Origin: an uncultured Nitrospirales bacterium
Lineage (GTDB): Bacteria > Nitrospirota > Nitrospiria > Nitrospirales > NS-4
Direction: 5' to 3'
Assembly: GCA_964472655.1 (NCBI GenBank)
Contig: CAYYLQ010000002.1
Location: 66,295-130,294 of the forward strand
DNA: 64,000 bases
The notes below the pieces were generated by a model that saw nothing but the letters and a program-made list of their open reading frames with translations, had not been told where the DNA came from and searched no databases. A program made the position numbers and the translations under genes. This document shows positions 10,717-39,514 of the stretch, piece by piece (the stretch's first letter is position 1; each line of letters begins with the position of its first letter).

Positions 10717-10738
10717 AACCGCGGAGGAGACAAAGGTG

Positions 10739-11395
10739 ATGCGACGTCGTGCAAACAGGCTGGCGGTTGTCCTGGCCGGCAGCTTGATCGGCGGGGCTAT
10801 CGGGGGGATGACGGCGACGGCGTGGGCAGGGCCTTCGACCGATGCTATCAAGAAGTCCGTTGACGAGGTGATCCGCATCCTGGAAGACCCGGCGTGGAAG
10901 AAACCGGAAAAAAAGGAAGAGCGCCGCAAGCTGCTGGAACAGACCATCGCCCAACGGTTCAATTTTACCGAAATGGCGAAGCGGAGTCTGGGGGCTGAAT
11001 GGGCCAAGCGGACGCCGGAGGAGCAAAAGGAATTCGCGGCCAATTTCCAGACCTTGCTGGCCAATACGTACATCGGACGGATCGAGGCCTACTCAGGCGA
11101 GAAGGTGCAGTACCTCAAGGAAATGAGTGACGGTGAGTTCGCGGAAGTCTATACGCATGTCGACACCGGCAAGTCCGTGGTCGACATCAATTACCGACTT
11201 CAGAAAAATTCCGAGGACTGGCGCGTCTACGATGTGGTGGTGGAAGGCACCAGCCTGGTCCAGAATTACCGCGAGCAGTTCAAGAGAATCCTCCGCAAGG
11301 ATTCATTTGCGGGACTGTCCAAGCAACTTCGGGATAAGTCGGCCAACATACGCGCTCCTGCTCCGGACGGCAGCGACACGGCCAAAGGTCGATGA
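10739..11395 (+). CDS. mlaC: MlaC/Ttg2D-like periplasmic lipid-binding protein
   Basis: ATG 10739 follows GGAGGAG (10723-10729). Signal peptide MRRRANRLAVVLAGSLIGGAIGGMTATAWA. MlaC-like blocks (FNFTEMAKRSLG, FQTLLANTYI, WRVYDVVVEGTSLVQNYREQF). The ORF track starts at 10700. Confidence 0.7.
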   Translation: MRRRANRLAVVLAGSLIGGAIGGMTATAWAGPSTDAIKKSVDEVIRILEDPAWKKPEKKEERRKLLEQTIAQRFNFTEMAKRSLGAEWAKRTPEEQKEFAANFQTLLANTYIGRIEAYSGEKVQYLKEMSDGEFAEVYTHVDTGKSVVDINYRLQKNSEDWRVYDVVVEGTSLVQNYREQFKRILRKDSFAGLSKQLRDKSANIRAPAPDGSDTAKGR

Positions 11396-15692: not shown

Positions 15693-15694
15693 GC

Positions 15695-23360: not shown

Positions 23361-24377
23361 ATGGCCGTGCCTGTCTCCCAGATGTTCACTGTCACTAAGT
23401 ACGTGTTGACCCAGAAGCTCAAAGGGGTCAAACGCTATCCGCTCGTCCTGATGCTGGAACCACTCTTTCGCTGCAATCTTGCCTGTGCGGGCTGCGGCAA
23501 GATCCAGTATCCCGATCATGTCCTGGACAAGCGTCTGACGCCGGAACAGTGCTGGGCGGCCGCCGAGGAATGCGGCGCGCCGATCGTGAGCATTCCGGGC
23601 GGGGAGCCGCTCATCCATCCTGAGATGCCGGCGATCGTGAAAGGACTGGTCGATCGGAAGAAGTACGTCTATCTTTGCACCAACGCCATCTTATTGGAGC
23701 GCAAGCTCGACGAGTACCAGCCGTCGCAATACCTGACATTCAGCATTCACATGGACGGCTTGCAGGCAGAGCACGACCTGGCGGTCTGTCGGGACGGCGT
23801 GTACGACGTCGCCGTCAAAGCGATCAAGGCGGCGCTCACGCGAGGGTTCCGGGTCACCACGAACACGACGCTCTTCGACGACGCCGATCCCGCGCGCGTC
23901 CGGAAGTTCTTCGATGCCATGATGGAGTTGGGCGTCGAAGGCATGATGATTTCTCCGGGGTACAGCTACGAGAAGGCGCCCGACCAAAAGAACTTCCTCA
24001 AGCGGCAGCGGACGCGCGAGCTTTTTTCGCGGATTCTCCACCGGCCCAAGACCGGCTGGCGGTTCAATCAGTCCCCGCTCTTCCTCGACTTCCTCATGGG
24101 CAAGGTGGACTACCAATGCACGCCCTGGGGCAATCCGACCTACAACATCTTCGGCTGGCAGAAGCCCTGTTACCTGCTCCAGGACGGCTATGTGGCGAGT
24201 TTCAGGGAACTCATGGACCAGACCGCCTGGGACAGCTACGGAACCGGACGTAACGAGAAATGCGCCGATTGCATGGTGCATTGCGGATATGAAGCGTCCG
24301 CCGTGGACGATACGTTCGGCTCGCTGCGGGGGTTCGGCCGATCGGTCGTGGCGACGCTGATGCCGACCGCCCGGTAG
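23361..24377 (+). CDS. hpnH: Radical-SAM adenosylhopane synthase HpnH-like
   Basis: CxxxCxxC motif CNLACAGC near the N-terminus. HpnH-like blocks (VSIPGGEPLIHPE, YLCTNAILL, RVTTNTTLF). C-terminal Cys pair (CADCMVHCGYE). Confidence 0.85.
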   Translation: MAVPVSQMFTVTKYVLTQKLKGVKRYPLVLMLEPLFRCNLACAGCGKIQYPDHVLDKRLTPEQCWAAAEECGAPIVSIPGGEPLIHPEMPAIVKGLVDRKKYVYLCTNAILLERKLDEYQPSQYLTFSIHMDGLQAEHDLAVCRDGVYDVAVKAIKAALTRGFRVTTNTTLFDDADPARVRKFFDAMMELGVEGMMISPGYSYEKAPDQKNFLKRQRTRELFSRILHRPKTGWRFNQSPLFLDFLMGKVDYQCTPWGNPTYNIFGWQKPCYLLQDGYVASFRELMDQTAWDSYGTGRNEKCADCMVHCGYEASAVDDTFGSLRGFGRSVVATLMPTAR

Positions 24378-25531: not shown

Positions 25532-25579
25532 GACGCTGTTGCCGTCGGGAGCAGGTTCCCCCGGTGAAGCGTCTTTTTT
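25532..25579 (+). terminator. Rho-independent terminator candidate
   Basis: Outer stem GACGCT (25532-25537) pairs with AGCGTC (25568-25573). The inner pairing is GC-rich and imperfect. The hairpin is followed by TTTTTT (25574-25579). Confidence 0.45.
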
Positions 25580-25620
25580 ATGCGGGGAATCCGGAGATGG
25601 GAAAGGAGTTGGGAGCGATT

Positions 25621-26178
25621 ATGAAAATTACACGCTTGCTTGGATTGTTGATCATCGGCGGTGTGGCATTTCTTGCGGCCGGTTGCGCGGAAGAGCAGGA
25701 GAGTACGGGGCCGCCTCCGCCCGCGCCGCCCGAATACGCCGACAAGCACATGCCGGCCGGGTGGTGGGCCGATGAGAAAATCATCGCTGAGGGCAAGGAG
25801 ATTTTCGAAGGCGTCAAGAATATCGATGTGAATTGCTCCTCGTGCCACGGCAAGGACGGCAAGCCGGTCAAGGCCGGCGCGCGGGACTTCCGCAAGGGCG
25901 AGCGGATGAAGCTCTACTCCGACAGCGTCTGGTTCTGGCGAATTTCCGAAGGGGTGCCGAACACCAAGATGAAAGCCTGGAAGAGCAAGCTCAGCGAAGA
26001 AGACCGCTGGAAAGCCATGGCCTATGAGCGGACCTTCGGATTGAAGGGGCTGGGTTACGACGTGGCCGCCAAGGACTGGGTTCCGGTCGATCAGTTAGGT
26101 AAAGCAAAACCGGCGGCCGGCGACGGCAAGGCTCCGGCGGCGACGCCCGTGAAGGACGACAAGAAAAAAGGGAAGTAA
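25621..26178 (+). CDS. Monoheme c-type cytochrome, lipoprotein
   Basis: ATG 25621. Lipobox LAAGC. Single CxxCH (CSSCH) with a distal Met candidate (PNTKMKAW). Lys-rich tail. Confidence 0.8.
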   Translation: MKITRLLGLLIIGGVAFLAAGCAEEQESTGPPPPAPPEYADKHMPAGWWADEKIIAEGKEIFEGVKNIDVNCSSCHGKDGKPVKAGARDFRKGERMKLYSDSVWFWRISEGVPNTKMKAWKSKLSEEDRWKAMAYERTFGLKGLGYDVAAKDWVPVDQLGKAKPAAGDGKAPAATPVKDDKKKGK

Positions 26179-26210: not shown

Positions 26211-27959
26211 ATGAGGACCTGGCAACGCAGCCTTCTTCTTGTACTGGGGCTTTTGTTAGTGGGAACGGCGGCCTATGCGCAACTCCCTGACCCCAAGCCG
26301 CATGAATTCCCCATCGGAGGAAACCGCGCCGCCGTCTGGGTCGTGGCCCAGCTGCACATCCTGTTCGCAGCGTTCATTCTCGGCGCGCCGATCTTCGTGG
26401 TCGTCAGCGAGATCATCGGATGGAAGAACCGCGACGGGCGCTACGAACGGCTGGCGAAGGAAGTCATCAAGGTCACGGTGATCCTCTACAGCATGACTGC
26501 GCTGACGGGCGGTCTCTTCATTTTCGTGCTGCTCGCTACCTATCCGCAGTTGACGGGCTGGCTGATCACCCACTTCTTCGACGTCTTCGCCATCTGGTAC
26601 CCGCTGCTCTTCATTGCGGAGACAATCGTCCTCTACCTCTATTGGTATACCTGGGACGCGTTGCAGGGGCCGCTCAAGCTCCGTCATATCGCGCTTGGGG
26701 TCCTGCTGAACGTGATCGGGCTGGCGACGCTCATTGTGATTGATGGCCCCACTGCGTTCATGAATACCCCGGTGAAATCCGCGGAGGGGCTGGACCTCAG
26801 AACTTTCATCGAAACCACGGCCACGCTGTGGGACAAGATGAACAATTTCAGCTGGTGGCCCCTAAACATCCACCGGACGGTCGGCAACGTGGTCTTCGGC
26901 GGGTTCATCACCGGCCTGATCGCCGCCTACATGTACATGGCCGCCAAAACAGAAGAGGAACGGGCCTTTTACGACTGGTTCGGGTTTGTGGGCAATCTGA
27001 TCGGCGTCGGCGCGCTGTTGTTGCTGCCCTTCGCCGGCTACCTGCTGGCCTACGAGCTCTGCGACTACGATGCCTCCATCTGTCCCTACATGATGGCCGA
27101 TCAGCTGTCCATGTTTTTCGAGATGCAGGGGGCGATGGTCGGGCTGATTTTCCTGGCGAGCAACTATTACATCTGGCTCAGCATGAAGCGGATCGAAGGG
27201 CTGGAACAGATCCGGATGAGGACCACCACACTGGTCCTTATGGCAAGCATCCCGGTCGTCTTCATGTTGATCTGGACCAAGTGGCCGATACCGGACATCA
27301 TGGCGCTCATTGTCCCGGCCTGCTGGGTCGCGGCGTTCCTGATCGCCGGAAAGTTTCTCATGTGGACGGTCCCGGCGCAGACGTTGGTCAGAGTGGCGTT
27401 CTTGATGGTGATCGTCGGCAACGCGATCTGGATGACGCCGCACGCCTTTGTGGCCACGCAGGCCTTGGCGCCCGATGACGGCTCGTTGAGCCTGCCGCAC
27501 GGCGAGCTCAGTCTGGGGTTCGTCACGGTGGATTGGGGCATGCTGGCGCTTATGCCTGCGAAGAACGCGGCGGCCTTCACCCTCGTCTTCGTCACGATCT
27601 GCAACTACATCCTGTACAACCGGGCCCTGAGTCGGGGGCGGATCGTTTGGGGCAAGATCGATTTCGTGTCCCAATTCGTGCTCGTCTTCCTGGCCTTCAG
27701 CGCAATCTGGACGATGGGCCTGATGGGGGCGGTCCGCGAACTGACCCGGAAATACTTCCACGTGTTCAACCTCCAGTACGATTTCACACCGGAGTCCTTC
27801 ACGCCGACCCTTGCATACTCCAGTTGGGTGATCACCGGAGTCACGCTGACGTTCTACATCGTCGTGAGTTTCGCGATCGTCCTGACGCTACGAACCGGGA
27901 AGGATAAGGCTCATGCCGAGGCGTCGAAAGCGGTCCCGGCCGCCGTGGGCGCAAAGTAA
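26211..27959 (+). CDS. Cytochrome bd-like oxidase subunit I homolog (CydA-like), paralog 1
   Basis: CydA-like landmarks: His in VAQLHILFAAF (compare CydA H19), Glu block FIAETIVLYLYWYTW (compare CydA FFLESTF..FGW), His in NIHRTVGNV (compare H186), and WMTPHAF. It also has an N-terminal signal-like segment and extra C-terminal hydrophobic segments. No cydB is adjacent. Confidence 0.8.
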   Translation: MRTWQRSLLLVLGLLLVGTAAYAQLPDPKPHEFPIGGNRAAVWVVAQLHILFAAFILGAPIFVVVSEIIGWKNRDGRYERLAKEVIKVTVILYSMTALTGGLFIFVLLATYPQLTGWLITHFFDVFAIWYPLLFIAETIVLYLYWYTWDALQGPLKLRHIALGVLLNVIGLATLIVIDGPTAFMNTPVKSAEGLDLRTFIETTATLWDKMNNFSWWPLNIHRTVGNVVFGGFITGLIAAYMYMAAKTEEERAFYDWFGFVGNLIGVGALLLLPFAGYLLAYELCDYDASICPYMMADQLSMFFEMQGAMVGLIFLASNYYIWLSMKRIEGLEQIRMRTTTLVLMASIPVVFMLIWTKWPIPDIMALIVPACWVAAFLIAGKFLMWTVPAQTLVRVAFLMVIVGNAIWMTPHAFVATQALAPDDGSLSLPHGELSLGFVTVDWGMLALMPAKNAAAFTLVFVTICNYILYNRALSRGRIVWGKIDFVSQFVLVFLAFSAIWTMGLMGAVRELTRKYFHVFNLQYDFTPESFTPTLAYSSWVITGVTLTFYIVVSFAIVLTLRTGKDKAHAEASKAVPAAVGAK

Positions 27960-27968
27960 GGGGGAGCC

Positions 27969-28796
27969 ATGGCTGGGGAACGAAGCTTCATCGGAATCCT
28001 GATCAAGCGCCTCTTCCTGGGTGGAGTCGCGGCGGTCGTCCTGTTCCTTTTAGGTCGTTTCGTCTTCCACTTCCCCCTCGTGTTTCAGGTCATGTTCGTT
28101 CTCTACGCAGGGCTGGGCACACTCGTTTTTATCCTTCTGGATGCTCCTGCCGTGTCGCCGTTCAGCGGCGTGAAGGCCTTGGTGGCCCTGGTGGCTTTCT
28201 ACGCGGTGATCTCGGGAGCCTTCATCGCCGGCGCCAACTTCCTGCCGCAGTACGATCCCACGGTCGAAAAAGGGAAGATCGACAAGATCGTGAAGCCGAA
28301 GCTGGCGGCGACCGACAAAGGCAAGATGGATGAACTGCTGAAGCGCAGCGTGGAGCTGAACGCCCAGAGCCAGGCCATCATGAAGCGGCTGGAGGCTCTG
28401 GGCGGCGCGGACAAGCTCAAGGCGGTCGGAGGCGACAAAGGCGGCGGCGGGGCTTCGCCCAAAGCGGCGGCCGGCGATCTGGTCGCGATCGGCAAGGAGC
28501 AGTACGACCTGCAGGAGTGCTACAACTGCCACAAGATCGGCGGCAAAGGCTCGGTCAAGAAGCGCGGTCCGATTCTGGACAACATTGGCAGCCTTATGAA
28601 GCCCGAGGAGATGAAGGAAAAATTGCTGAACCCCCGCGCGTGGATGGCCGATGGATTCGAGAAGGAATACAACAAGAAACTCATGCCGGATAAGTACAAG
28701 GAGCTGATGTCGGACCAGGAGATCGACGCCCTGGTGGCGTATCTGGCCACTTTGAAGGACGCGTCGGTCCAGACTCCCAAACCCATCAAGAAGTAA
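27969..28796 (+). CDS. Membrane-anchored monoheme c-type cytochrome
   Basis: Three N-terminal hydrophobic helices, a linker, then CYNCH with a class I cytochrome c-like C-terminus (DQEIDALVAYLATL). Confidence 0.8.
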   Translation: MAGERSFIGILIKRLFLGGVAAVVLFLLGRFVFHFPLVFQVMFVLYAGLGTLVFILLDAPAVSPFSGVKALVALVAFYAVISGAFIAGANFLPQYDPTVEKGKIDKIVKPKLAATDKGKMDELLKRSVELNAQSQAIMKRLEALGGADKLKAVGGDKGGGGASPKAAAGDLVAIGKEQYDLQECYNCHKIGGKGSVKKRGPILDNIGSLMKPEEMKEKLLNPRAWMADGFEKEYNKKLMPDKYKELMSDQEIDALVAYLATLKDASVQTPKPIKK

Positions 28797-28818: not shown

Positions 28819-29754
28819 ATGGCCAGCGTGCAACCAAAGATCAAATCGAAAGTCCGTTGCCTTGACGGCGAGATCGGAGAAATCGTTCACGTCATTGCCG
28901 ACCCCATCTCGCTCGAAGTCAGCCACATCGTCGTCCGCGCGAACGGAACCCAGCGGCAGGTGCCGGCCAGCTCGATCGCCGTGGTGCGGGACGATGCGGT
29001 CGAGCTGCTCTGCAGCGCGTCCCAGGTGGCGGGCTTTCCTGAACACAAGCCGGAAGACTTCCTGACGTCGAAACAGGTCGAGATCCCGCATCTCGAGAAC
29101 CGCATTCACGTCGACCCCGGCGAGTTGCTCGTGCCCTTTCCGGCGCTTGAGAAGAGCTGCGCCCGGCGGAATTTCTTCGCGGGCTTCATCCATGTCATCG
29201 GCGCGCTCATCGCTCTCCCGCTCGTGTGGCCCGTCCTCCGCTTCATCATGAAGCCCATGTACGCCCCGTACGACAACCACTGGATCAAGATCGGGAACGT
29301 GAGCAAGATCAAGACCGACGACATCGGGGTGCAGTTTATCTTCAAGAAGTCCTTCAAAGACTCGGTGTTGGAACGCGAAGAGGACAAGAACCATTGGGTC
29401 ATCAAGGCCACCCCCGAGGTGCTCAAGAAGATTTATCAGCATGGCGACATGGCCTTTTATGACGAGAAGGGCGACGTCGTGTGGGTCAACAAGCAAACGA
29501 TTCCTTACGTCGCATTTGCGGGCAAGTGCCCCCATCTCGGCTGCGGCTACAAGTGGCGCTCGCATAAAACACGCGGGCAGGTGTTTCTCTGTCCGTGCCA
29601 TCTCAGTATTTACGACGCCGCCGGGACCGTGTTGGACGGGCCGGCCCCGCGTCCTCTGGACGTGCTGCCGATCAAAGTCTCTGCAACGGGGGACATCGAA
29701 GTCATCGACATTGAGTACAAAGCGGGGAAGAAAGAGCAGGTTCGCATCCTTTAG
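28819..29754 (+). CDS. Rieske [2Fe-2S] protein with a long N-terminal cytoplasmic extension
   Basis: Rieske boxes CPHLGC (from nt 29527) and CPCH (29590-29601). TM helix FFAGFIHVIGALIALPLVWPV is preceded by ARRNFF, a twin-arginine-like motif. About 115 aa precede that motif. Confidence 0.9.
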   Translation: MASVQPKIKSKVRCLDGEIGEIVHVIADPISLEVSHIVVRANGTQRQVPASSIAVVRDDAVELLCSASQVAGFPEHKPEDFLTSKQVEIPHLENRIHVDPGELLVPFPALEKSCARRNFFAGFIHVIGALIALPLVWPVLRFIMKPMYAPYDNHWIKIGNVSKIKTDDIGVQFIFKKSFKDSVLEREEDKNHWVIKATPEVLKKIYQHGDMAFYDEKGDVVWVNKQTIPYVAFAGKCPHLGCGYKWRSHKTRGQVFLCPCHLSIYDAAGTVLDGPAPRPLDVLPIKVSATGDIEVIDIEYKAGKKEQVRIL

Positions 29755-30840
29755 ATGAATACGCTGTTGCAAAAGGTCTACGATTTCGTCGACGAGCGGA
29801 TAGACCTGAAGACGCTCGAGGCGAAGATGATGAAGGAGCCGATCAAGGGCGGCTCCCGCTGGGCTTACGTCTTCGGCTCGGTCCTGCTGTTCATCTTCAT
29901 CATGCAGGCCGTGACCGGCGTCCTGCTGATGTTCTACTACATCCCCAGCGCCGACCATGCGTACGCCAGCACCCAGTTCATCATTCACGAGGTGGACTAC
30001 GGCTGGTTCATTCTCAGCTATCACTTCTGGGGCTCGTCGGCCATGGTCGTCATGGTCTTTGCCCACATGTCGCAGGTCTTTCTCTGGGGCGCCTACAAGA
30101 CGCCCCGCGAGATGATCTGGCTGATCGGCCTGGGGCTCTTCGGCATCGTGATGGCCTTCGGCTTCACCGGCTATCTCCTGCCGTGGGATCAGCGCGCCTA
30201 CTGGGCCACGACCGTCGGCGTCGAGATCATGGACAAGACACCCGTTGTGGGCGACTTTTTGGCCCGGTTCCTCAAAGGCGGCCCCACGCCCGGGCAGATG
30301 ACCTTGAGCCGGTTTTTCGTCATCCACGTCATGATTCTGCCGGGCGCCTTGATGGGGCTCGCGGGGCTGCATCTCTTCCTCTTCCGGTCGGCTGGGCCCG
30401 CCGGCCCGTTCCGCGGCACCCCCGAGGAGCTGAAGGCCAAGACCGATTTCTTTTTCCCGCGCCAGGTGTGGAAGGACATCGTGGCCATGGCGGCGGTTTT
30501 CCTGAGCATCTGCTCGCTGGCGCTCATCGAGCCGGTGGTCCTGCTGGAAGAGGCAAAGCCCGACCCCGGCGATTACCATCCGGAGCCCGAGTGGTACTTC
30601 CTGTTCCTGTTCCAGATGCTCCGGTGGAAGGCCTTTTCGGGCGAGTTCGGCCAGTTCGTGGCAGCGACGGCGATTCCCGCCGCATTCATGCTGTTGCTGG
30701 CCGCACTGCCGTTCATCGACCGGAGCCCGGAGCGCAATATCTTTAAACGCCCGATCGCACTGTTGTCCTGGACCGTAGTCATGATCGGGATTCTGGTCCT
30801 GACCGTGTCCGCGATCCTCAACCGCGAGTTCCTCGACTGA
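29755..30840 (+). CDS. Cytochrome b (fused b6 plus subunit IV-like)
   Basis: Heme ligand pairs H-x13-H (HFWGSSAMVVMVFAH) and H-x14-H (HVMILPGALMGLAGLH). Qo-site PEWY motif (PEPEWYFLF). The ATG directly abuts the Rieske stop. Confidence 0.9.
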   Translation: MNTLLQKVYDFVDERIDLKTLEAKMMKEPIKGGSRWAYVFGSVLLFIFIMQAVTGVLLMFYYIPSADHAYASTQFIIHEVDYGWFILSYHFWGSSAMVVMVFAHMSQVFLWGAYKTPREMIWLIGLGLFGIVMAFGFTGYLLPWDQRAYWATTVGVEIMDKTPVVGDFLARFLKGGPTPGQMTLSRFFVIHVMILPGALMGLAGLHLFLFRSAGPAGPFRGTPEELKAKTDFFFPRQVWKDIVAMAAVFLSICSLALIEPVVLLEEAKPDPGDYHPEPEWYFLFLFQMLRWKAFSGEFGQFVAATAIPAAFMLLLAALPFIDRSPERNIFKRPIALLSWTVVMIGILVLTVSAILNREFLD

Positions 30841-30852
30841 CGGAGGCCGGGC

Positions 30853-31701
30853 ATGTCCCATCCCGCGACCGCCATCTCCTCCATCAAGCTGGCCTGGGCC
30901 CTGTCCTGGTCGGCCTTCTGGACGGGGTTCCCGTTCAAGCTGATCGTCGCCCTGCTGCTGCTCGCGGCGCAGATCCACCCTTGGGAGAGCGCGGGGCTCA
31001 TTGCGTTGCTCGCGCTGTCGGCACCGATCGATATCTGGGCGTTGGGCCTGACGGCCCGGACCTTCTTCCTCGAACGGCTGGGGATGGAGATTCGCGGGCC
31101 GGCGGGGATCGCGCTCTGGTGGCAGGGCGCCGTCCTTGGCGCCGTCGTGCTGGGAGCCGCCTATTTCGCGGTTGGTGCCGTCGCTGCTGTCTGCCAGAAA
31201 GCCGCGGCGGCCACATTCGTCGCGGTGAAGAAAGTCCTTCCCGTTCCCATCGCTGAGCAGATCACCATCGAATTGCTGATGTGGGCCGTGCCGGCCACGA
31301 TCGTGCTCATTGTATGTCTCCTGATCTGGCTGCAGCTCTTCGGGTGGCGGATCAAGCGTTTCCTCGTCGCTTCCGGCCAGACCAGCCCGGCCGGCTTGCA
31401 GGAGCGCGTGCGGGAATGGGACGGCTGGCGCGTGCCGGCCGATTCGATGCTGATGCTGGTGTCCTTTACCGCAGTGGCCGTGCTCTTGACCGTCGCGTTC
31501 TGGGTGCTGCTGCCGGTGACGACGCCGCACCGGCACCCGGACTATCCCCCGCCGCAGACGGACACGGCCAAGAAGACGCCCAAGCCGGAGGAGCTGTTGA
31601 AAAAAACAGATACCACCCTCGCCAAGGCCGAAGCGGTCCTGGAGTTGCTGGAAAAGGAAAAAGCCAAAGAGAAGAAAAAGCCCGCGGCCAAGGGGAAATA
31701 G
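30853..31701 (+). CDS. Polytopic membrane protein of unknown function with Lys/Glu-rich C-terminal tail
   Basis: GGAGG (30842-30846) precedes ATG 30853. Several hydrophobic helices. Tail KKTPKPEELLKKTDTTLAKAEAVLELLEKEKAKEKKKPAAKGK. No family recognised. Confidence 0.6.
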   Translation: MSHPATAISSIKLAWALSWSAFWTGFPFKLIVALLLLAAQIHPWESAGLIALLALSAPIDIWALGLTARTFFLERLGMEIRGPAGIALWWQGAVLGAVVLGAAYFAVGAVAAVCQKAAAATFVAVKKVLPVPIAEQITIELLMWAVPATIVLIVCLLIWLQLFGWRIKRFLVASGQTSPAGLQERVREWDGWRVPADSMLMLVSFTAVAVLLTVAFWVLLPVTTPHRHPDYPPPQTDTAKKTPKPEELLKKTDTTLAKAEAVLELLEKEKAKEKKKPAAKGK

Positions 31702-31715
31702 AAGGAGAGAGCGCT

Positions 31716-33548
31716 ATGGAACACATACGGAACCATAAAAATGTGTATGCCTATGCGGCGCTTTTCCTGGTGCTGGCGTTTGTGGTCGCGATGCCGGTGG
31801 GCCTGGCTTGGGCCGAGGAAGCTTCGGCGGGGGCGGCGACGGAGTATCGCGACATCCCTGGCATGGGCAGCCGGAACCTGATCTGGATCATTGCGCAGCA
31901 GCACCTGCTCCTGGCGGGGTTCGTACTGGGCGTGCCGATCTTCGCGTGGGTATGCGAGATCGTCGGCGTCAGGACCGGCGACCAGCGATACGACAAACTG
32001 GCCAAGGAATTTACCAAGCTGCTCACGTCCTCCTACGCCACGACCGCCCTCTTTGGCGGTATTCTCCTGTTCCTGCTGATCGGGCTCTATCCCAAGCTGA
32101 TGTCCTACCTCACGGACGTCTTCTTCCCCTCGTTTCTCGCGTACAGTGTCCTCTTTCTGCTGGAGACGGCGACTCTGTACCTCTACTGGTACGGGTGGGA
32201 TTCGATGCAGGGGAAGCAGAAAGGTTTGCATCTGTTCCTGGGCTTCCTGCTCAACGTCTTCGCATTCTTCATCATGATCATCCCGAACTCCTGGGCGACC
32301 TTCCAGGCCAGCCCGGTCGTGATCGCGGAAGGCAGCATGTGGTCCAAGGCATGGGCGGCGACGTGGAATCCGACCTGGTGGCCGGTGAACGTCCACCGCC
32401 TGATCGCCAACGTCGTGCTGGGCGGCTACATCTGCGGCGCGTACGCGGGGCTCAAGTACTTGATGGCGCAGAACGCGGAAGAGCGCGTGCATTACGACTG
32501 GATGGGGTACGTCGGGAACTTCATCGGCGTGTTCGGCCTGCTGCCGCTGCCCTTCGCCGGCTACTGGCTGATGCGGGAGATCTACCAGTACAACCAGCAG
32601 ATGGGCATCACCCTCATGGGCGGGTTCCTCTCCTGGCTGTTCATCCTGCAGGCCATGCTGATCGGGATTTTATTCGTCGGCTCGAACTATTACTTCTGGC
32701 TGGGGATCATGCATCGGATTCCCGGGTCCGAAGCCAAGTACCGGCGGCCGATCCTGACGATGCTGGTCATCCTGCTCGTGTGTCTGGGGGTCTGGATGAC
32801 CCCGCATTCCCTGGTCGCGAGCCTGGAAGAGGCGCGGAAGATGGGCGGCACCCACCATCCCCTGCTGGGCGTCTTCGGCGTCATGTCCGCGAAGATGACC
32901 GTGGCGAATCTCATGATCCTGGTAACCTTTATGAGCTTCATCATGTACTGGCGGGCCGGCAAGGTGGAGACCGCCGGGTGGGCGAAGGCGGCCAAGGCCG
33001 GCCAGGGCGTGATCCTTGGAATTGCCGTGATCGTCGTCGTCGTGCTGGGTGTGTGGGGCTATTTCGTGCCGGCCATCACGCGGATCAACTATTTTTCCAC
33101 GACCCAGGTGCTGGTCGTGCTCTTCGTTCTGCTGACCATTACGCCCTTGACGGGGCTCCTGATGAAGAGCGCCAAGACGACCACCGAGATGGTGTGGGGC
33201 GTCATGCCGCCGCGATCGGCGTATGCCCTTGTGCTCAACGCGGTCATGGTCATCCTGCTCATGACCCTCATGGGCTATGCGCGGTCGTCGTCGCGGGTCC
33301 ACTGGCACGTGTACGGAGTGATGCAGGACACCTCGCAATATGCCTATTCGCCTGCGCTCGGCTACGCCGCCGCCTTCATGGCCCTGAACACGTTCATGTT
33401 CTGCATGCTGGTCGCGTTCATTTTCTGGGTCGCCTCCCTGGGTGGCGAGAAGAAAGGCGGCGCTCCGGACAAGGCGGCCGCGAAAGCAAAGGGCGCCGCG
33501 TCGCCGGCCGTCGGGACGGCTCCCGCAGCGGCGACCGGCCGTCGCTAG
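31716..33548 (+). CDS. Cytochrome bd-like oxidase subunit I homolog (CydA-like), paralog 2
   Basis: ORF 31281..33548 trimmed to ATG 31716, which follows AGGAGAGA. It shares the CydA-like landmarks of paralog 1 (AQQHLLL, FLLETATLYLYWYGW, NVHRLIANV, WMTPHS). It also has extra His motifs: THHP (32853-32858) and VHWHV (33300-33308). About 13 hydrophobic segments follow the signal-like N-terminus, counted by eye. Confidence 0.8.
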   Translation: MEHIRNHKNVYAYAALFLVLAFVVAMPVGLAWAEEASAGAATEYRDIPGMGSRNLIWIIAQQHLLLAGFVLGVPIFAWVCEIVGVRTGDQRYDKLAKEFTKLLTSSYATTALFGGILLFLLIGLYPKLMSYLTDVFFPSFLAYSVLFLLETATLYLYWYGWDSMQGKQKGLHLFLGFLLNVFAFFIMIIPNSWATFQASPVVIAEGSMWSKAWAATWNPTWWPVNVHRLIANVVLGGYICGAYAGLKYLMAQNAEERVHYDWMGYVGNFIGVFGLLPLPFAGYWLMREIYQYNQQMGITLMGGFLSWLFILQAMLIGILFVGSNYYFWLGIMHRIPGSEAKYRRPILTMLVILLVCLGVWMTPHSLVASLEEARKMGGTHHPLLGVFGVMSAKMTVANLMILVTFMSFIMYWRAGKVETAGWAKAAKAGQGVILGIAVIVVVVLGVWGYFVPAITRINYFSTTQVLVVLFVLLTITPLTGLLMKSAKTTTEMVWGVMPPRSAYALVLNAVMVILLMTLMGYARSSSRVHWHVYGVMQDTSQYAYSPALGYAAAFMALNTFMFCMLVAFIFWVASLGGEKKGGAPDKAAAKAKGAASPAVGTAPAAATGRR

Positions 33549-33560
33549 GGGTTGGTGTCC

Positions 33561-34148
33561 ATGACTGAAGTCCAACTGTTGCAAGCGATTGGGATGGGCG
33601 TGGTCGGTCTGGGGGGGGCGATCCTCCTCTTTGTGCAAGCCCGCTTCGTCCGCGTGGTCGCCTTCGTGCTGATCGTGCTAGGGGGCTTTGCGTTGGTCGC
33701 CCTGGGGGTTCCCCAAATGGCCTCGTTGCCGCCCGCCGTGGAAAAATTCGACGTGGCGTCCATCAAGGAGAAGAAGGACCTGGCGGCGATCGGCCAGAAG
33801 ATCTTCTTCGGCAAGGGCCAGTGCGCGCTGTGTCATACGATCGGCAGCAGCGAGGGCCGGTGTCCTGACCTCAAGGGCGTCGGGTCCAAGCTGACGCGCG
33901 AATTCATTTACGAAAGCCTGACCCAACCCCAGGCGTACGTCTATAAGGACTACGAGCACGTCGGCCAGGCCAAGTTCTTCCCCGCCAAGATGCCTTACAT
34001 CAACAAGAAACCGATCGGCTTGAGCAACAACGAGATCCTCGCGGTCATCGCCTTCCTGCAGAATATGTCGGGTGAGCCGGTGACCATCGAATTGTCCGAG
34101 ATTGAGGCGCCCAGTTCCGTAAGCGCGGAGAGGAGGAAAGGCCTATGA
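33561..34148 (+). CDS. Membrane-anchored monoheme c-type cytochrome
   Basis: Two N-terminal hydrophobic helices, then CALCH. The C-terminus resembles a class I cytochrome c (ILAVIAFLQNM). TTG 33552 and GTG 33555 are alternative starts. Confidence 0.75.
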   Translation: MTEVQLLQAIGMGVVGLGGAILLFVQARFVRVVAFVLIVLGGFALVALGVPQMASLPPAVEKFDVASIKEKKDLAAIGQKIFFGKGQCALCHTIGSSEGRCPDLKGVGSKLTREFIYESLTQPQAYVYKDYEHVGQAKFFPAKMPYINKKPIGLSNNEILAVIAFLQNMSGEPVTIELSEIEAPSSVSAERRKGL

Positions 34149-34867
34149 GAGGGTCCTCACTGGCGATCAAGGGGGCCATTCTGCTGGCGGCGGTGTTCGC
34201 GGTGCTGAAGTTCATCCTGCCGCTCTTTACCGCGCCCTTGCCCATGAGTCTCATCTGGCTGTATTTGTTTTTGGCCACCGTCGGCATCGTCGTGTACGGC
34301 ACGCTCAGTGGCGAGTCCACGGAGCAATTGATGGGTCCCATCTTCCGGTTTCTAAGCGGGGAAGGGTTGAACGGGGTGGCCCGATATGCCCGTCTCACGG
34401 TCCTGGTGCTGTTCCCGCTCCTCGTGGGCTGGGAAACTTACAGCGGCCTCGTGCCCAGCAGCCAGCCGCCCGCCGAGAACCGGACCATCCACCCGGCGCC
34501 TCCCGGAGAGTTCGTGGGGCTGTCCAATCCCCTGCCCAACACGCCGGAGAATGTGATGATGGGAAAGGGGCTCTATTCCGCCTTCTGTTCGCCCTGCCAC
34601 GGCGCGAAGTTCAACGGCAACGGTCCGGCCTCCGACGGGTTCAACCCGCCGCCGGCCAACTTCTCCGATCCCGGCACCATCGCCATGCTCCAGGAGTCCT
34701 ACCTGTTCTGGCGCATCAAAAAGGGCGGGGTGGGGCTGTCGGTCGAGGGCCATCCGTGGAAATCGGCCATGCCGCGCTGGGAAGTGGAACTGCCCGACGA
34801 CTGGATATGGAAGATCATCATGGCGGAATATGCCGGAGCCGGGCAGAAGCCCAGGACGTGGGAGTAA
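34145..34867 (+). CDS. Membrane-anchored monoheme c-type cytochrome
   Basis: ATGA overlap with the upstream gene. Three hydrophobic helices, then CSPCH with distal Met candidates (KSAMPRW). Confidence 0.8.
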   Translation: MRGSSLAIKGAILLAAVFAVLKFILPLFTAPLPMSLIWLYLFLATVGIVVYGTLSGESTEQLMGPIFRFLSGEGLNGVARYARLTVLVLFPLLVGWETYSGLVPSSQPPAENRTIHPAPPGEFVGLSNPLPNTPENVMMGKGLYSAFCSPCHGAKFNGNGPASDGFNPPPANFSDPGTIAMLQESYLFWRIKKGGVGLSVEGHPWKSAMPRWEVELPDDWIWKIIMAEYAGAGQKPRTWE

Positions 34868-34870
34868 GCG

Positions 34871-35821
34871 ATGAGAACGGTTCCATCACGATACGGGATG
34901 GTGGCTCTCTTGGCCGTTGCGGCGGGCCTGCTGTGGGTCGCGTCGGCGCTCTCGCAAGAGACCGTCGTCGTTCGCGCGAAGCTGATCCAAGGCGAGGTGC
35001 CGACGGATCCGTCCGCGTCGATCTGGGGCACGATCCCGGCGACCGAGTTCCCGATGTCACCCCAGGTCCATTGGCAGAAACGCATCGGGTCGGTGACGGT
35101 CAAGTCCATCAAGGTGCGGGCCGTCCATAACAATAAGCAGATCTCGTTCCTCGTCGAATACGCGGATCCGACCCAGGACCCGGCCGACGCCGCGGCGCTG
35201 GAGTTCATGGTGGGCGACAAGAAGGCCCACTTTGCCCACGGACAGCCCATGGGGCAGGTGGAAGGCGGGCCGGTCAACATCTGGTACTGGCGAAACGACG
35301 CGCCGGCGGCTCTGGACATGAGCGCGCAGGGCTTCGGGACGCTGAAGAAGCAGGCTCAGCAGGACGTTCAGGCGAAAGGCGTCTGGAAAGACGAGAAGAC
35401 CAAGATCAAGTTCAAGGAACGCAAGCTGAATCCCCGCAAGGGCGACAAAGGCGAGGTGCTCAAGGATCCGAAGACGGGCGATCCGCTCTTTGATGAAGAG
35501 ACGAAGGTGGTCGAACAGGACGTAAGCGGCGTGTGGCGCATTGTGTTTACCCGCGCGCTGACCACCACCGACAAGGAGGACGTCCAGATTCAGACAGGGA
35601 CGTTCCCAAACGTCGCCTTCGCGGTGTGGGACGGCAAGAAGCTGGAGAGTGGCGATCTGAAGGAGTCGGGCTCGCAAAAGGCTATCACGTCCTGGTGGTA
35701 CATCAACGCGGAGCCGCCGCCGGATTATTCGATTTATTTGTACGGCCTCATGGCGGTCGTGCTGGCCGCGGGGGTGGAGTTCGTCATCATCCGGAAGGTG
35801 AAGAAGGGGCAGCCGGCGTGA
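34871..35821 (+). CDS. EB_dh-type (ethylbenzene dehydrogenase gamma-like) heme-b binding protein with C-terminal membrane anchor, NxrC-like
   Basis: Signal peptide (GMVALLAVAAGLLWVASALS). The soluble domain resembles, by eye, the gamma subunits of type II DMSO-reductase-family enzymes (WGTIPATEFPMSPQVHW, NIWYWRND, VAFAVWDG). C-terminal TM IYLYGLMAVVLAAGVEFVII followed by a basic tail. Confidence 0.6.
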   Translation: MRTVPSRYGMVALLAVAAGLLWVASALSQETVVVRAKLIQGEVPTDPSASIWGTIPATEFPMSPQVHWQKRIGSVTVKSIKVRAVHNNKQISFLVEYADPTQDPADAAALEFMVGDKKAHFAHGQPMGQVEGGPVNIWYWRNDAPAALDMSAQGFGTLKKQAQQDVQAKGVWKDEKTKIKFKERKLNPRKGDKGEVLKDPKTGDPLFDEETKVVEQDVSGVWRIVFTRALTTTDKEDVQIQTGTFPNVAFAVWDGKKLESGDLKESGSQKAITSWWYINAEPPPDYSIYLYGLMAVVLAAGVEFVIIRKVKKGQPA

Positions 35822-36615
35822 AGGGTCAGCGCATTGCAGGAGGGGCCGCCGTCGTGACGGTGGCGGCGTTGGTCGGACTCGCCGGCTGCGGGCTGTTTCA
35901 GGACGAGCATGTGGCGAAGGGCGCGGACCTGTACGCCTATTATTGCTCCCATTGTCACGGGGAGAAAGGGAAGCCGGGCCAGGGCTTTAACTGGAAGCTC
36001 ATGCCAGATCCCAAACCCAAGGACCTGTCCAACAGGGATGAGATGAGCACCCTCAAGGACCAGGAGATCTTCGAGACCATCTCCCGCGACATGAAGGACA
36101 CGACCCCCCAGGTCGGCGACAAGATCGGCGACGACGAGTTCGCCGTTCCGACGATGCCGACGTTCAAGTACACGCTGTCGGAGGAGGAACTCTGGTCGCT
36201 GGTGGCCTTCGTGCGGACGCTCCACGGGACAAAGATAGAGAAGAAGGACTTCGCCGCGCTGAAGAAGGAGCGGCCAAAGGGTTCGCCGATCGCTAAGCCG
36301 ACGGTCACGGCGACGCCGGCCGAAGAGTCCAAGCTGGCGGCGCGCGGCAAGCAGCTCTATTTGAATAAGTACGGCTGCAATGCCTGCCACAAGGTGGGAG
36401 ACACCGGCGGCGAGGTCGGCCCGCCTTTGGACCGGGCGGGGTTCCGCCTGAACGGCCACTGGGTCTATCGGTGGATCAAATACCCGCAGATTATGAAGCC
36501 CCACACCAAGATGCCGAATCTCGGCGTGAGCGACGACGATGCCAAGGCCCTCATGTTCTACCTGAAGACCTTGAACGCGCCGCCGCCGGACAAGCCGCTG
36601 CCGGCTTCGTCCTAA
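35818..36615 (+). CDS. Diheme c-type cytochrome, lipoprotein
   Basis: GTG 35818 overlaps the upstream stop (GTGA) and follows AAGAAGGGG. Lipobox LAGC. Two CxxCH motifs (CSHCH, CNACH). The ORF track extends upstream to 35533 inside the previous gene. Confidence 0.8.
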   Translation: MKGQRIAGGAAVVTVAALVGLAGCGLFQDEHVAKGADLYAYYCSHCHGEKGKPGQGFNWKLMPDPKPKDLSNRDEMSTLKDQEIFETISRDMKDTTPQVGDKIGDDEFAVPTMPTFKYTLSEEELWSLVAFVRTLHGTKIEKKDFAALKKERPKGSPIAKPTVTATPAEESKLAARGKQLYLNKYGCNACHKVGDTGGEVGPPLDRAGFRLNGHWVYRWIKYPQIMKPHTKMPNLGVSDDDAKALMFYLKTLNAPPPDKPLPASS

Positions 36616-36622
36616 GCCGCGC

Positions 36623-37501
36623 CTACCTGAGCAAGACCCCGCTCCAGATGCCCGCGAGGATCAGCGCGCCGATCCCGACGTGCTGCTTGAACAAGACGGA
36701 GGCTTGAGCCTGCGACACCCCGCGTCTAAGCTGTCGTGCCTGGGCGACGAAGAGTCCCACAGCCAGCGCCAGCGAGAGGTAAAACGGAAGCGCGAGGCGT
36801 ATCGCCGCGCCGACGAATGCCAGGATTGCCGCCATGGCGAGCAGCGCGCCGCCCACGGCGATCCAGCACCACTCTCCAAAAAAGATGGCCGAGGAACGCA
36901 CGCCGACCCGCCGGTCGTCCTCGATGTCCTGCAGAGCATAGATCGTATCGTACCCGACGGCCCAGCAGACGGTCGCTGCGAAGAGGCCGAACGCCGGCCA
37001 GCCGATCTCGTTCCGCACCGCAGACCAGGCCATGACAGCGCCCCAGCCGAACGCGATGCCGAGGATGGCCTGCGGGAGCGGCATGACTCGCTTCGCGAGC
37101 GGGTAGAGGACGGCCAGGAGCAGGGCGACGGGCGCCAGCGCAATGGTGAATTGGTTGAGTAGGGAGACCAGGCCGGCGGCGGCGGCAATCAGCAACGCGA
37201 AGATTCCCAATGCGGCGTGGGGATGCAGACGTCCCGATGCGAGCGGGCGCTCGCAGGTCCGCTGAACTTGGCGGTCCAGGTCGCGATCCCACCAGTCGTT
37301 GATGACGACGCCGGCGCTCCGCATGACGAAGACGCCCGTGATGAAAATTGCGACGAGCGTGAGCGGCGGACGCCCCTCGCCGGCGAGCGTCAGCGCCCAC
37401 AACGTCGGCAACAGCAGCAAGAACGATCCCGTTTGGTTGCGGAGTCGGATGAGGTCGGCCAGAGTGGACCAGGAGAGCGGCGAACCTCCGAAAACGGCCA
37501 T
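36623..37501 (-). CDS. ubiA: 4-hydroxybenzoate polyprenyltransferase-like UbiA-family prenyltransferase
   Basis: First Asp-rich motif NDWWDRDLDRQVQRTCERPLASG matches UbiA (NDxxDRxxDxxxxRTxxRPLxSG). Second motif YALQDIEDD. Polytopic protein. Confidence 0.8.
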   Translation of the reverse strand: MAVFGGSPLSWSTLADLIRLRNQTGSFLLLLPTLWALTLAGEGRPPLTLVAIFITGVFVMRSAGVVINDWWDRDLDRQVQRTCERPLASGRLHPHAALGIFALLIAAAAGLVSLLNQFTIALAPVALLLAVLYPLAKRVMPLPQAILGIAFGWGAVMAWSAVRNEIGWPAFGLFAATVCWAVGYDTIYALQDIEDDRRVGVRSSAIFFGEWCWIAVGGALLAMAAILAFVGAAIRLALPFYLSLALAVGLFVAQARQLRRGVSQAQASVLFKQHVGIGALILAGIWSGVLLR

Positions 37502-37645: not shown

Positions 37646-39514
37646 ATGTCCTTCCGCGTTCCGGCCCTCCGGCCTCTGATAAGCCTCGTCGTCCTGCTGG
37701 CGGCGCTGGCGGGTTTCGGGTGCGGACAGAAGCTCGTTTTCCCCCGGTTGGAATTCAAATCCGACGAGCCCCAAATACCCAGCATCCCACTGACCGTCCG
37801 TCTCGACATTCCCGACGCGTTCAAACAGACCCAGCTGTTTTACAAGGATTCGTGCGGCGTGTCCCAGGGCATTCCCTTGGGTGAGCGTCTCGCCGAGCAA
37901 GTGAAGGCCGATGCGGCCGGCGTCTTTGAAAAGACCTTTGTGGGCGGCCCGAAGGATCCCGCCGACGCCGTCCTGAGCGCCGCGATCGAGACCAGCGAAC
38001 TTACCCTGAACATTCCGCGCCGTGAGCCCAACGAGTACAAGATGACTGTCTTGGTGCGCTTGCGGATCACGATGACCGATTCCGAGGGCAGGTCGCTGTT
38101 CAACGGCGCGGTCAAGGGCGAAGGGAAATGGAACGTGACCACCGACGGGATTGAATGCACGGTGCGAGGGCTGATGCTGCCTGTGACGGAGGCGCTGGAA
38201 AAGCTTTCGGATCGGACCGTCGAGGAACTGGCCCAATCGGTCAAGGTCCGCGACTGGGCCATGCGGCTGCAGACTCGCAAGGAAATGACGGCCGGCGGCG
38301 TCCAGGCGCCGCCGGCCGGGGCCGGCGATCCTCCCACGCTGAGCTTCCGTGCGTCGCTCGAAGACGAGAACCGCAACCAGATCCTCAACGCGGGTGAGAA
38401 GGTCGTCGTCCGGGTGGAAGTGGCCAACAGCGGTCCGGGCGTGGCGCGAGGAGTGACGGTCGTCCTGTCCGGAACCCCGGATCTGGTGAAGGAATTCACC
38501 AACCCCACGCTGCTCGGTGATCTCCAGCCGGGCGAGAAGAAACAGGCAGTCATTACATCGCTCCTGCCGGCGTCCCTCTCTGATCAACAGGCGGAGCTGC
38601 AGGTGCAGGTGACCGAGGCCGGCGGATTCGGGCCGCCGACTCAGAAACGGTTCGCCGCGTCGGTGAAGTCGAAGGAAGGGTCAGTCGAGACGGTCGAAGT
38701 CCCGTCCAGCGACGTGGACCAGATCCCCCCGCGGGCGTCGGGGTTCGATCGGCGCACCTCCTATGCCGTCGTGGTGGGGATCGGAGGGTACCGCGAGGAA
38801 GGTGTCCCCAAGCTGAAGTACGCCAAGCGCGATGCCGAAGTGGTCGCCAAGCACCTGATGGCGCTGGCGGGGTATGCCCCCGAGAACGTGCGGGTCTTGA
38901 CGAACGAGCGGGCGCTGCTGGTGGATCTCCAGGAAACTTTTGAAGACTGGCTTCCCCGAATGGCCGCGTCGTCTGGCGTCGTGTTCGTCTATCTGGTCGG
39001 CAACGCCGTCCTCAATCCGGAAAACGGCACGATCGTCCTGATGCCCTATGAGGGCCGTCAGGACCAGGCCCGCCGGGGCTACTCTCTGAAGCGGCTGCAG
39101 GAGGTACTGGCGCGCTTGCCCTCCAAACTGAACCTGGTCTTTGCCGACCTCTCGTTTCCGGCCGATAAGACGGGGGCCAGCCCGCGGCCCATTCTGTGGA
39201 ACGCCGGCGGGCCTGATGGGAAAAACCGTACCATCATCGTCGGATCGTCCTCAACGAACGGTCCCAGCCTGTCATTCGATGCGGGGCAGCACGGACTGTT
39301 CACGTATCACTTCCTCAAGGCCGTTCGCGGGCAGGCCGATACCGACAATAACGGCTGGGTGGACGTGGGCGAGATCGTCGCCTATCTCCGGGAGCAGGTG
39401 GCCAAGGGGGCTGTGGCGCTCAAACGGGAACAGGTGCCGGTGGTCAGTCCCGATGTTGCGCCGGACGGCCCGATCGGCACGTATCCGGTCAGCAAAGCCA
39501 AACGGCGGGGTTGA
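37646..39514 (+). CDS. Lipoprotein with a C-terminal caspase-fold (peptidase C14-like) domain lacking the canonical His/Cys dyad
   Basis: Lipobox LAGFGC. The middle region resembles a CARDB-like beta-sandwich (GEKVVVRVEVANSGPGVARGVTVVLSG). C14-like blocks are present (YAVVVGIGGYR...LKYAKRDAEVVAKHL, HGLFTYHFLKAVRGQADTDNNGWVDVGEIVAYL). GHG is replaced by VGNAV (N at 39002-39004). DxC is replaced by ADLS (S at 39152-39154). Confidence 0.7.
   Translation: MSFRVPALRPLISLVVLLAALAGFGCGQKLVFPRLEFKSDEPQIPSIPLTVRLDIPDAFKQTQLFYKDSCGVSQGIPLGERLAEQVKADAAGVFEKTFVGGPKDPADAVLSAAIETSELTLNIPRREPNEYKMTVLVRLRITMTDSEGRSLFNGAVKGEGKWNVTTDGIECTVRGLMLPVTEALEKLSDRTVEELAQSVKVRDWAMRLQTRKEMTAGGVQAPPAGAGDPPTLSFRASLEDENRNQILNAGEKVVVRVEVANSGPGVARGVTVVLSGTPDLVKEFTNPTLLGDLQPGEKKQAVITSLLPASLSDQQAELQVQVTEAGGFGPPTQKRFAASVKSKEGSVETVEVPSSDVDQIPPRASGFDRRTSYAVVVGIGGYREEGVPKLKYAKRDAEVVAKHLMALAGYAPENVRVLTNERALLVDLQETFEDWLPRMAASSGVVFVYLVGNAVLNPENGTIVLMPYEGRQDQARRGYSLKRLQEVLARLPSKLNLVFADLSFPADKTGASPRPILWNAGGPDGKNRTIIVGSSSTNGPSLSFDAGQHGLFTYHFLKAVRGQADTDNNGWVDVGEIVAYLREQVAKGAVALKREQVPVVSPDVAPDGPIGTYPVSKAKRRG

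Follow-up and report, generated by a model that had tools for sequence, protein, structure and literature searches.

Conserved histidines in predicted periplasmic loops of an OR-N2-type cytochrome bd-like subunit from an uncultured Nitrospirales bacterium

In soils, waters and wastewater plants, Nitrospira are the dominant nitrite oxidisers and also act as complete ammonia oxidisers. Which enzyme serves as their terminal oxidase, and by what chemistry it works, has been an open problem since 2010. Most Nitrospirales have no heme-copper oxidases, yet they respire O2 with electrons from a high-potential donor (PMC6606698, PMC10579370). The DNA analysed here, a stretch of 64,000 nucleotides from an uncultured Nitrospirales bacterium (contig CAYYLQ010000002.1, positions 66,295 to 130,294; hereafter the window), encodes two and only two cytochrome bd-like proteins, paralog 1 of the OR-N1 type and paralog 2 of the OR-N2 type, which share 35% identity. 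A first-pass annotation made from the letters alone pointed out that paralog 2 has an HH and an HxH motif that paralog 1 lacks, and proposed that these histidines could bind a non-heme metal and mark paralog 2 as the true O2-reducing protein. This locus raises the question as to whether the histidines are conserved, where they lie relative to the hemes, and what they might bind. The reading that we favour, with a probability of roughly 0.6, is that paralog 2 is the catalytic-type OR-N2 subunit of the long-proposed cytochrome c-oxidising terminal oxidase, and that its histidines belong to a periplasm-side cofactor site with two layers.

Paralog 2 is another species' ortholog of a known candidate, and the window adds no new hypothesis. 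Its counterpart in Ca. Nitrospira defluvii (FP929003, 877594-879318) is 81% identical over residues 26-608 and lies in full synteny; going by published descriptions rather than by locus-tag annotation, that gene should be Nide0901. The region of identical gene order in N. moscoviensis is described as bd-like_1, CIII_1, bd-like_2 (= CIV), cytochromes c and alt_nxrC_1, and all genes of that cluster are highly co-expressed (PMC6606698). In 2010, Lucker et al. put Nide0901 forward as a new terminal oxidase that would carry heme b and CuB-like sites, which was restated in PMC6606698 and repeated for N. marina (PMC8115632), for marine Nitrospirales (PMC10579370) and for Nitrospina relatives (PMC5029188). 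Because that proposal has been standing in the literature ever since, the idea of copper-binding histidines is a rediscovery and was already known. The same protein appears elsewhere as the "NIDE0901-like OR-N2 subunit", suggested to form a CydAA'-type oxidase with OR-N1 (PMC12342949), and in Ca. Manganitrophus the complex is named TO_1 (PMC9040806); the OR-N2 subfamily itself is that of Murali, Gennis and Hemp 2021. A paper of December 2025 still has the enzyme as uncharacterised and treats it as heme-dependent. Compared with Nide0901, bd-like_2 (complex IV), OR-N2 and TO_1, paralog 2 has the same gene order, the same 14 helices, the same retained and lost CydA residues and the same putative heme b and copper-site histidines, and we see no substantive difference.

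Conservation of the histidines

The two motifs are exactly where they had been placed, with H380 and H381 in GGTHHPLLG and H529 and H531 in SRVHWHVYG (Table 1). Their occurrence as such says little: for a protein of 610 residues with 12 histidines, the chance of finding one HH and one HxH is about 0.05 by a rough estimate, which is not very improbable, so that the signal has to lie in conservation. A chance origin of the motifs was considered and is ruled out by the conservation of the four histidines. For a comparison of close homologs we took 120 database homologs per paralog, giving 121 sequences per group with the query and an alignment of 242 sequences. Scanning one genome per GTDB species yielded 80 loci, with at least 582 stretches coding for a relative; the ortholog set comprises 81 copies with 59-93% identity, from loci of Nitrospirales, Manganitrophaceae and Troglogloeales. 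Positions 364, 380, 381, 529 and 531 are histidine in all 121 close OR-N2 homologs and in 81/81 orthologs, and position 259 is histidine in 80/81. The complete list of histidines that the close OR-N2 homologs keep without exception is H63, H172, H227, H259, H364, H380, H381, H529 and H531. Five of these (H63, H172, H227, H364 and H531) are common to the OR-N1 group, which has F or Y at position 259, S or E at 380, L at 381 and Y at 529. The HH loop, from W-x-TPH to MSAK, is exactly 34 residues long in 120/120 OR-N2 proteins, and its OR-N1 equivalent ranges from 33 to 47 residues. OR-N1 proteins have a group-specific histidine of their own, H121, present in 120/121 members and replaced by I, V or M in OR-N2.

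The expectation that the histidines would be kept in one orthologous group only is thus borne out at positions 380, 381 and 529. The by-eye comparison of the two paralogs likewise proved accurate, as paralog 1 reads RKYFHVFNL, with a single histidine, opposite RVHWHVYGV of paralog 2; in the 242-sequence alignment its S427-L428 stands opposite HH and its Y515-F-H517 opposite HWH. The statement that paralog 1 is without these motifs holds at positions 380 (S/E), 381 (L) and 529 (Y), but not for H531 and H364, which both paralogs have. For the first loop it also needs qualification, because the OR-N1 loop usually holds one loosely placed histidine (H430 in paralog 1, found in 100/121 OR-N1 proteins). 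Conversely, H259 is a further paralog-2-specific histidine that had been overlooked; it is predicted to be cytoplasmic and would therefore lie outside the periplasmic cluster. How much weight the conservation can bear depends on its background: 31% of all positions are invariant in the 81 orthologs, and 52% of those within the two histidine loops. Because of this background, the conservation is meaningful but not extreme, and more weight falls on the clean difference from paralog 1.

A different picture emerges further away. When 1.84 billion cluster representatives were searched exhaustively with HMMER, 1077 relatives were recovered. Most distant ones (30-50% identity) retain H381 (as an H-P motif), M390 and H531, and they have F, Y, Q or S at position 380 and D, N, E, Y or H at position 529. 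After clustering at 50%, H381 and H531 are both present in 33/42 representatives, and H531 is near-universal in OR-N1 and OR-N2 alike. H529 accompanies H380 in 6/7 representatives, as compared with 7/26 of those without H380 (Fisher p = 0.008, with no correction for phylogeny). The pattern in distant relatives, together with the co-occurrence of H380 and H529, points to a two-tier cluster, with an old, family-wide layer of H381 and H531 and a younger layer of H380 and H529 that would be restricted to Nitrospirales and Manganitrophaceae. The notion that paralog 2 had gained all of these residues as special additions fails for H381 and H531, because both are family-wide.

CydA-type residues, topology and predicted fold

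Paralog 2 belongs to the CydA superfamily: it matches Pfam PF01654 (E = 4.8e-20), has the CydA fold, and keeps H63, H172, H227 and E150 as invariant residues. The Pfam match covers residues 53-293 only, both paralogs being matched over their N-terminal ~240 residues only. At E <= 0.01 no other Pfam family, including COX1 (PF00115), matches paralog 2, and NCBIfam has no model for either paralog. As the first-pass annotation had it, the CydA landmarks are shared: equivalents of H19, E107, H126, H186 and M393 are present in both proteins (H49, E137, H159, H221 and M448 in paralog 1), and both have a tyrosine at the Glu99 position. M390 is the likely Met393 equivalent, and its position is consistent with M430 in Table S6 of Murali et al. 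The overall pattern of H63, Y143, E150, H172, H227, M390, S524 and W530 equals the OR-N2 row of that table.

The features of quinol oxidases (qOR) are missing. There is no Q-loop, as homology to CydA ends after transmembrane (TM) helices 5/6 and is followed by extra TM helices and the 34-residue loop, and Glu99 and Glu445 are replaced by Y143 and S524, both invariant in OR-N2. At the Glu445 position OR-N2 always has Ser, and OR-N1 has Glu or Ser; the corresponding entry in Murali Table S6 is S563(S/A). A weak HMMER alignment pairs RkhWhV of paralog 2 (R-x-H-W-H-V) with RQPWTV of the M. smegmatis bd oxidase (9R2G), which would put HWH 5-7 residues past the lost Glu445 position. Paralog 1 keeps a glutamate there (E510), as do 76/121 OR-N1 members, and because OR-N2 always has Ser, paralog 1 would in this one respect be the more "canonical" of the two. 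Relative to canonical CydA (E. coli bd-I 6RKO, Geobacillus 5DOQ, M. smegmatis 9R2G), paralog 2 therefore has homologous TM1-5, a Met393-like methionine and an R-x-x-W loop motif; it differs in having no quinol site, Tyr for Glu99, Ser for Glu445, four extra TM helices plus a signal/anchor helix, and the extra periplasm-side histidines. It also differs from canonical bd oxidases in its partners, since no cydB gene (PF02322) is found among the cluster genes, and its neighbours encode c-type cytochromes, Rieske protein, cytochrome b and an NxrC-like heme b protein.

An AlphaFold2 (AF2) model built from a 73-sequence alignment (mean predicted local distance difference test score 86.3, predicted template modelling score 0.85) has an N-terminal helix and 13 long helices, 14 in total, as expected for OR-N2 (~14 TM). 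With membrane cores taken from the AF2 helices and hydropathy, and K+R counted in the loops on each side, 28 positive residues are inside and 10 outside. In this topology H364, H380, H381, H529 and H531 are on the periplasmic side and H259 and H333 on the cytoplasmic side; H63, H172 and H227 lie within helices, H63 and H227 near the periplasmic side. The possibility that the motifs would map to cytoplasmic loops far from any heme is not borne out: in the model their loops face the periplasm, as do the heme ligands H63 and H227. HH is in a non-helical stretch directly before the M390 helix, and HWH is in a short strand directly after helix 499-526, which carries S524. Since HH adjoins M390 and HWH adjoins S524, both motifs are modelled as flanking canonical heme-ligand positions, on the membrane side of the bd hemes. 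The first-pass annotation had argued from histidines inside or next to TM helices; in the model the motifs are in loops that adjoin the helices with M390 and S524, and not within helices.

A Foldseek search against the PDB gave CydA chains as all of the top 10 matches (probability 1.00, TM-score on target 0.5-0.6), followed by CydB chains. No heme-copper oxidase fold occurs among the 50 Foldseek matches listed. The likeness to heme-copper oxidase subunit I is thus confined to HH and HxH at the sequence level and to the proposed role as a cytochrome c oxidase, without any relation in sequence or fold, and in the model the motifs of paralog 2 are in loops rather than buried helices. The HxH motif that helix X contributes in bovine and bacterial heme-copper oxidase structures binds the two hemes and not copper. 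The analogy with CuB drawn in the first-pass annotation is partly imprecise, CuB being bound by an HH pair plus one further His (PMC3578206).

Putative roles of the histidine cluster

How could such a protein work? Under the reading that we favour, paralog 2 would have kept the four-helix core of CydA, with H63 as ligand of the O2 heme, E150 in the proton channel, and H227 and M390 as b558 ligands, and would no longer have the Q-loop that binds quinol or the Glu445 ligand. For the putative reduction of O2, two c-type cytochromes and the NxrC/EbdC-like heme b protein presumably bring electrons from the periplasm. The histidines of HH and HWH, as putative ligands, would form part of a conserved periplasm-side cofactor site beside the heme-bearing helices. 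Within this site the ancient H381 and H531 most likely ligate or hold the heme that is without its Glu445 ligand, and H380 and H529, as later co-occurring additions, would enlarge it and could provide the remaining ligands of a non-heme metal centre. We lean towards such layering, with the old pair serving the heme and the young pair as an addition. Several points weigh against this reading. Paralog 1 has the same canonical landmarks, none of which singles out paralog 2 as the O2-reducing subunit; because of this, assigning the oxidase function to paralog 2 and a different one to paralog 1 would have to draw on the histidine cluster and gene context only. The equivalences to Met393 and Glu445 come from weak alignments in the diverged C-terminal half, and the statistic for the co-occurrence of H380 and H529 is phylogenetically non-independent. 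No OR-N structure is in the PDB copy searched, where sequence and profile searches match canonical CydA over TM1-5 only, and our literature search found no purification or cryo-electron microscopy work on a bd-like (OR-N) oxidase.

The same residues can be accounted for by hemes only. The extra histidines would then be axial ligands (H531 in place of Glu445, H381 in a bis-His or His/Met heme) or partners of propionates, and the enzyme would contain no metal outside its hemes and operate as bd oxidases of the cytochrome bb' type do, with cytochrome c as its donor. We regard this as a serious contender, if somewhat short of an even chance. H381 and H531 are family-wide, as core cofactor ligands should be, H531 is also present in OR-N1, and HWH is in the loop equivalent to GRQPW, just past the lost Glu445. 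Moreover, all-heme-b bd oxidases are active (Murali et al. preprint), and for a relative of Nide0901 the number of putative heme sites was put at four by Ngugi et al. (PMC5029188). On its own, however, a heme-only site leaves the joint gain and clade-wide invariance of H380 and H529 unexplained, and heme b is more typically ligated by histidines within the membrane than by ones in loops. Another reading is a copper site, where a CuB-like copper would be held by three periplasm-side histidines (H380, H381 and H529, for example) beside a high-spin heme held by H531 or H63, giving a binuclear heme-copper centre for O2 reduction that arose convergently on a CydA scaffold. Exactly three OR-N2-specific histidines are predicted on the periplasmic side, the number that CuB needs (PMC3578206); all three are invariant in the 81 orthologs, H380 and H529 co-occur, the canonical ligand of the second heme (Glu445) is lost, and the organisms, mostly without heme-copper oxidases, respire O2 from a high-potential donor. 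We nevertheless consider copper rather unlikely. Neither sequence nor fold is related to heme-copper oxidases, the motifs are modelled in loops instead of buried TM helices, and many distant relatives have H381 without H380 and H529. Canonical bd oxidases reduce O2 without copper, the 2025 paper still takes the enzyme as heme-dependent, and no Sco, PCuAC or Cox11-type chaperone domain was detected in the ~50 window genes scanned, which is weak evidence. Unlikelier again is the most far-reaching version, in which H380/H381/H529 copper beside a heme on a CydA scaffold would make this a fourth, convergent type of respiratory O2 reductase, fed by cytochrome c, with H381/H531-only relatives as its copper-free precursors. 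If copper were indeed present at the cluster, O2 reduction would have been solved convergently in a new way, with bearing on the O2 affinity, copper requirement and energy yield of nitrification.

A separate issue is what paralog 1 does. It could be the CydB-like partner of paralog 2 in one heterodimeric (CydAA') oxidase coupled to the bc complex, the histidine asymmetry then reflecting a division of labour. A precedent for two paired CydA-like paralogs is CydAA' (qOR4) of Caldivirga maquilingensis, which is active with b hemes only; unlike OR-N2, it oxidises quinol, has a Q-loop and 8 TM helices, and has neither cytochrome c partners nor the extra histidine cluster. Such a pairing would fit the missing cydB gene, the linkage of OR-N1 and OR-N2 with unchanged gene order in at least 48/80 loci, and the co-expression of all cluster genes in N. 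moscoviensis, and an OR-N1/OR-N2 oxidase has been suggested before (PMC12342949, Murali et al. preprint). We view it as possible, with the odds leaning against it: OR-N2 modules with the full histidine set occur without OR-N1 in Manganitrophaceae/Troglogloeales loci, OR-N2 often stands without a second CydA-like gene (Murali et al. preprint), and OR-N1 adjoins the Rieske and cytochrome b genes rather than OR-N2. The literature itself offers both OR-N2 (PMC12342949) and the bc complex (Murali et al. preprint) as partner of OR-N1. That the complex is no oxidase at all, and instead an electron-transfer or membrane-anchor module (e.g. from NXR or cytochromes c to quinone, in reverse electron flow) whose histidines bind hemes or dock partners, seems improbable. 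Lucker et al. 2013 did propose a role of this kind for a related bd-like protein of the NXR cluster, the module contains an NxrC-like subunit, and a UbiA quinone-biosynthesis gene adjoins the cluster. Yet the equivalents of His19, Glu107 and His126, the core for O2 reduction and proton channelling, are invariant, a quinol-binding Q-loop is absent, and these organisms need some cytochrome c oxidase, for which most have no other candidate (PMC6606698, PMC12342949, PMC10579370); N. lenta BS10 and Ca. N. nitrosa are among those named as having no further oxidase (PMC12342949).

Gene neighbourhood and orthologous loci

The cluster in the window runs cytochrome c, OR-N1, cytochrome c, Rieske, cytochrome b, 282-residue membrane protein, OR-N2, cytochrome c, cytochrome c, NxrC-like protein and diheme cytochrome c (Table 1), and the full order recurs in at least 48/80 loci. 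The module OR-N2-cytochrome c-cytochrome c-NxrC-like is kept in all loci with enough flanking sequence, and Manganitrophaceae/Troglogloeales loci have it without OR-N1 or bc genes. One Ca. Troglogloeales metagenome-assembled genome (MAG; SBBT01000106, 1471-14564) has three tandem OR-N2-cytochrome c-cytochrome c-NxrC-like modules without OR-N1, Rieske or cytochrome b; two of the copies have the full histidine set and the third has Y at position 380. A distant OR-N2-like protein of 889 residues (P0245; Logan SRR15505514 contig, 117-2786), which carries H380/H381/H529/H531, is fused to two cytochrome c domains. For two distant relatives with the full histidine set, the genomic context is limited to contigs of ~3 kb. 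The fusion hints at cytochrome c as direct electron donor, and, taken with the conserved module, would point to periplasmic cytochromes as putative donors and to OR-N2 as the core of a module of its own. What this analysis adds to the earlier work are refinements, namely the distinction between ancient H381/H531 and clade-specific H380/H529, the occurrence of the OR-N2 module independently of OR-N1 in groups other than Nitrospirales, and the cytochrome c-fused relative; these could guide the design of mutagenesis and the choice of comparison enzymes. An experimental resolution of the terminal-oxidase question would be of high interest.

Table 1 Features of the OR-N1/OR-N2 cluster in the window (residue numbers are those of paralog 2 unless stated otherwise; aa, amino acids; ORF, open reading frame; RBS, ribosome-binding site)
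Feature	Coordinates	Strand	Details
Monoheme cytochrome c, upstream of paralog 1	25564..26178	+	
Paralog 1, OR-N1-type bd-like subunit	26211..27959	+	582 aa; S427-L428 and Y515-F-H517 at aligned positions
Membrane-anchored cytochrome c	27969..28796	+	
Rieske iron-sulfur protein (complex III module)	28819..29754	+	
Cytochrome b (b6/subunit IV-like fusion)	29755..30840	+	
Conserved 282-aa multi-TM membrane protein	30853..31701	+	No Pfam/NCBIfam family
Paralog 2, OR-N2/Nide0901-type cytochrome bd-like subunit	31716..33548	+	610 aa; N-terminal signal/anchor helix and 13 TM helices; ORF, RBS
N-terminal hydrophobic signal/anchor segment, aa 1-33	31716..31814	+	Ends ...GLAWA/EE; hydropathy, AF2 helix 7-33
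H63, CydA His19 equivalent (O2-binding heme ligand)	31902..31904	+	HMMER alignment to 9r2g/5doq/6rko; invariant in both paralog groups
E150, proton-channel Glu107 equivalent	32163..32165	+	Alignment; Glu99 equivalent is Y143
H172, CydA His126 equivalent	32229..32231	+	Alignment
H227, CydA His186 equivalent (heme b558 ligand)	32394..32396	+	Alignment
H259	32490..32492	+	OR-N2-invariant, F/Y in OR-N1; predicted cytoplasmic loop
H364, W-x-TPH motif	32805..32807	+	Predicted periplasmic TM-helix end; common to paralog 1 (H411)
HH motif, H380 and H381 in GGTHHPLLG	32853..32858	+	Codons CAC CAT; predicted periplasmic loop, 9 residues before M390
M390 in M-S-A-K motif, likely CydA Met393 equivalent (second heme b558 ligand)	32883..32885	+	Invariant in both paralog groups
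S524 at CydA Glu445 position (heme b595 ligand)	33285..33287	+	Canonical ligand lost; weak HMMER alignment
HWH motif, H529-W530-H531 in SRVHWHVYG	33300..33308	+	Codons CAC TGG CAC; loop equivalent to CydA GRQPW loop
Cytochrome c, OR-N2 module gene one	33552..34148	+	
Cytochrome c, OR-N2 module gene two	34145..34867	+	
EbdC/NxrC-like heme b subunit, C-terminal TM anchor	34871..35821	+	PF09459, TIGR03477
Diheme cytochrome c	35818..36615	+	Mechanical ORF begins 35533

The start of paralog 2 is at ATG 31716, which is preceded by an AAGGAG ribosome-binding site and from which orthologs align from residue 1. The mechanical ORF list has instead a GTG-started ORF of 755 residues (31281-33548, + strand); it was rejected because it overlaps the gene of the membrane protein upstream and because the orthologs begin at the equivalent of ATG 31716. 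The N-terminal segment has a predicted cleavage site at GLAWA/EE. For the diheme cytochrome c, the start is most likely GTG 35818, which overlaps the stop codon of the NxrC-like gene; the latter gene is called "alt_NxrC_1" in N. moscoviensis (PMC6606698).

In Nitrospirales the 282-residue membrane protein always lies between cytochrome b and OR-N2. It has conserved histidines of its own, with H42 in 57/66 sequences and a TPH(P/R)H motif that immediately follows the final TM helix (H226 in 61/67, H228 in 67/67), and it may be an uncharacterised subunit of the oxidase complex. Convergent to the end of the cluster is the UbiA gene (36623-37501, - strand), a benzoquinone-biosynthesis gene for 4-hydroxybenzoate polyprenyltransferase, which scores 272.8 bits against the TIGR01474 cut-off of 275.45; unusual plastoquinones have recently been reported for this order (PMC12324825). 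Directly downstream of the cluster, 37646-39514 (+) encodes a protein of 622 residues with a C-terminal caspase domain (Peptidase_C14) and an N-terminal lipoprotein-like signal. Upstream are hopanoid/isoprenoid genes (5767-7932, 13794-16870 and 23361-24377, + strand; squalene-hopene cyclase, DXP synthase, IspG (GcpE) and HpnH) and an Mla lipid-transport operon (8706-11395). Finally, OR-N2 orthologs with 72-76% identity were found in two MAGs labelled Nitrospinota (L054) and Cyclobacteriaceae (L077), the former with Nitrospirales gene order and the latter on a short contig; both contigs are probably Nitrospirales sequences mis-binned into other MAGs.

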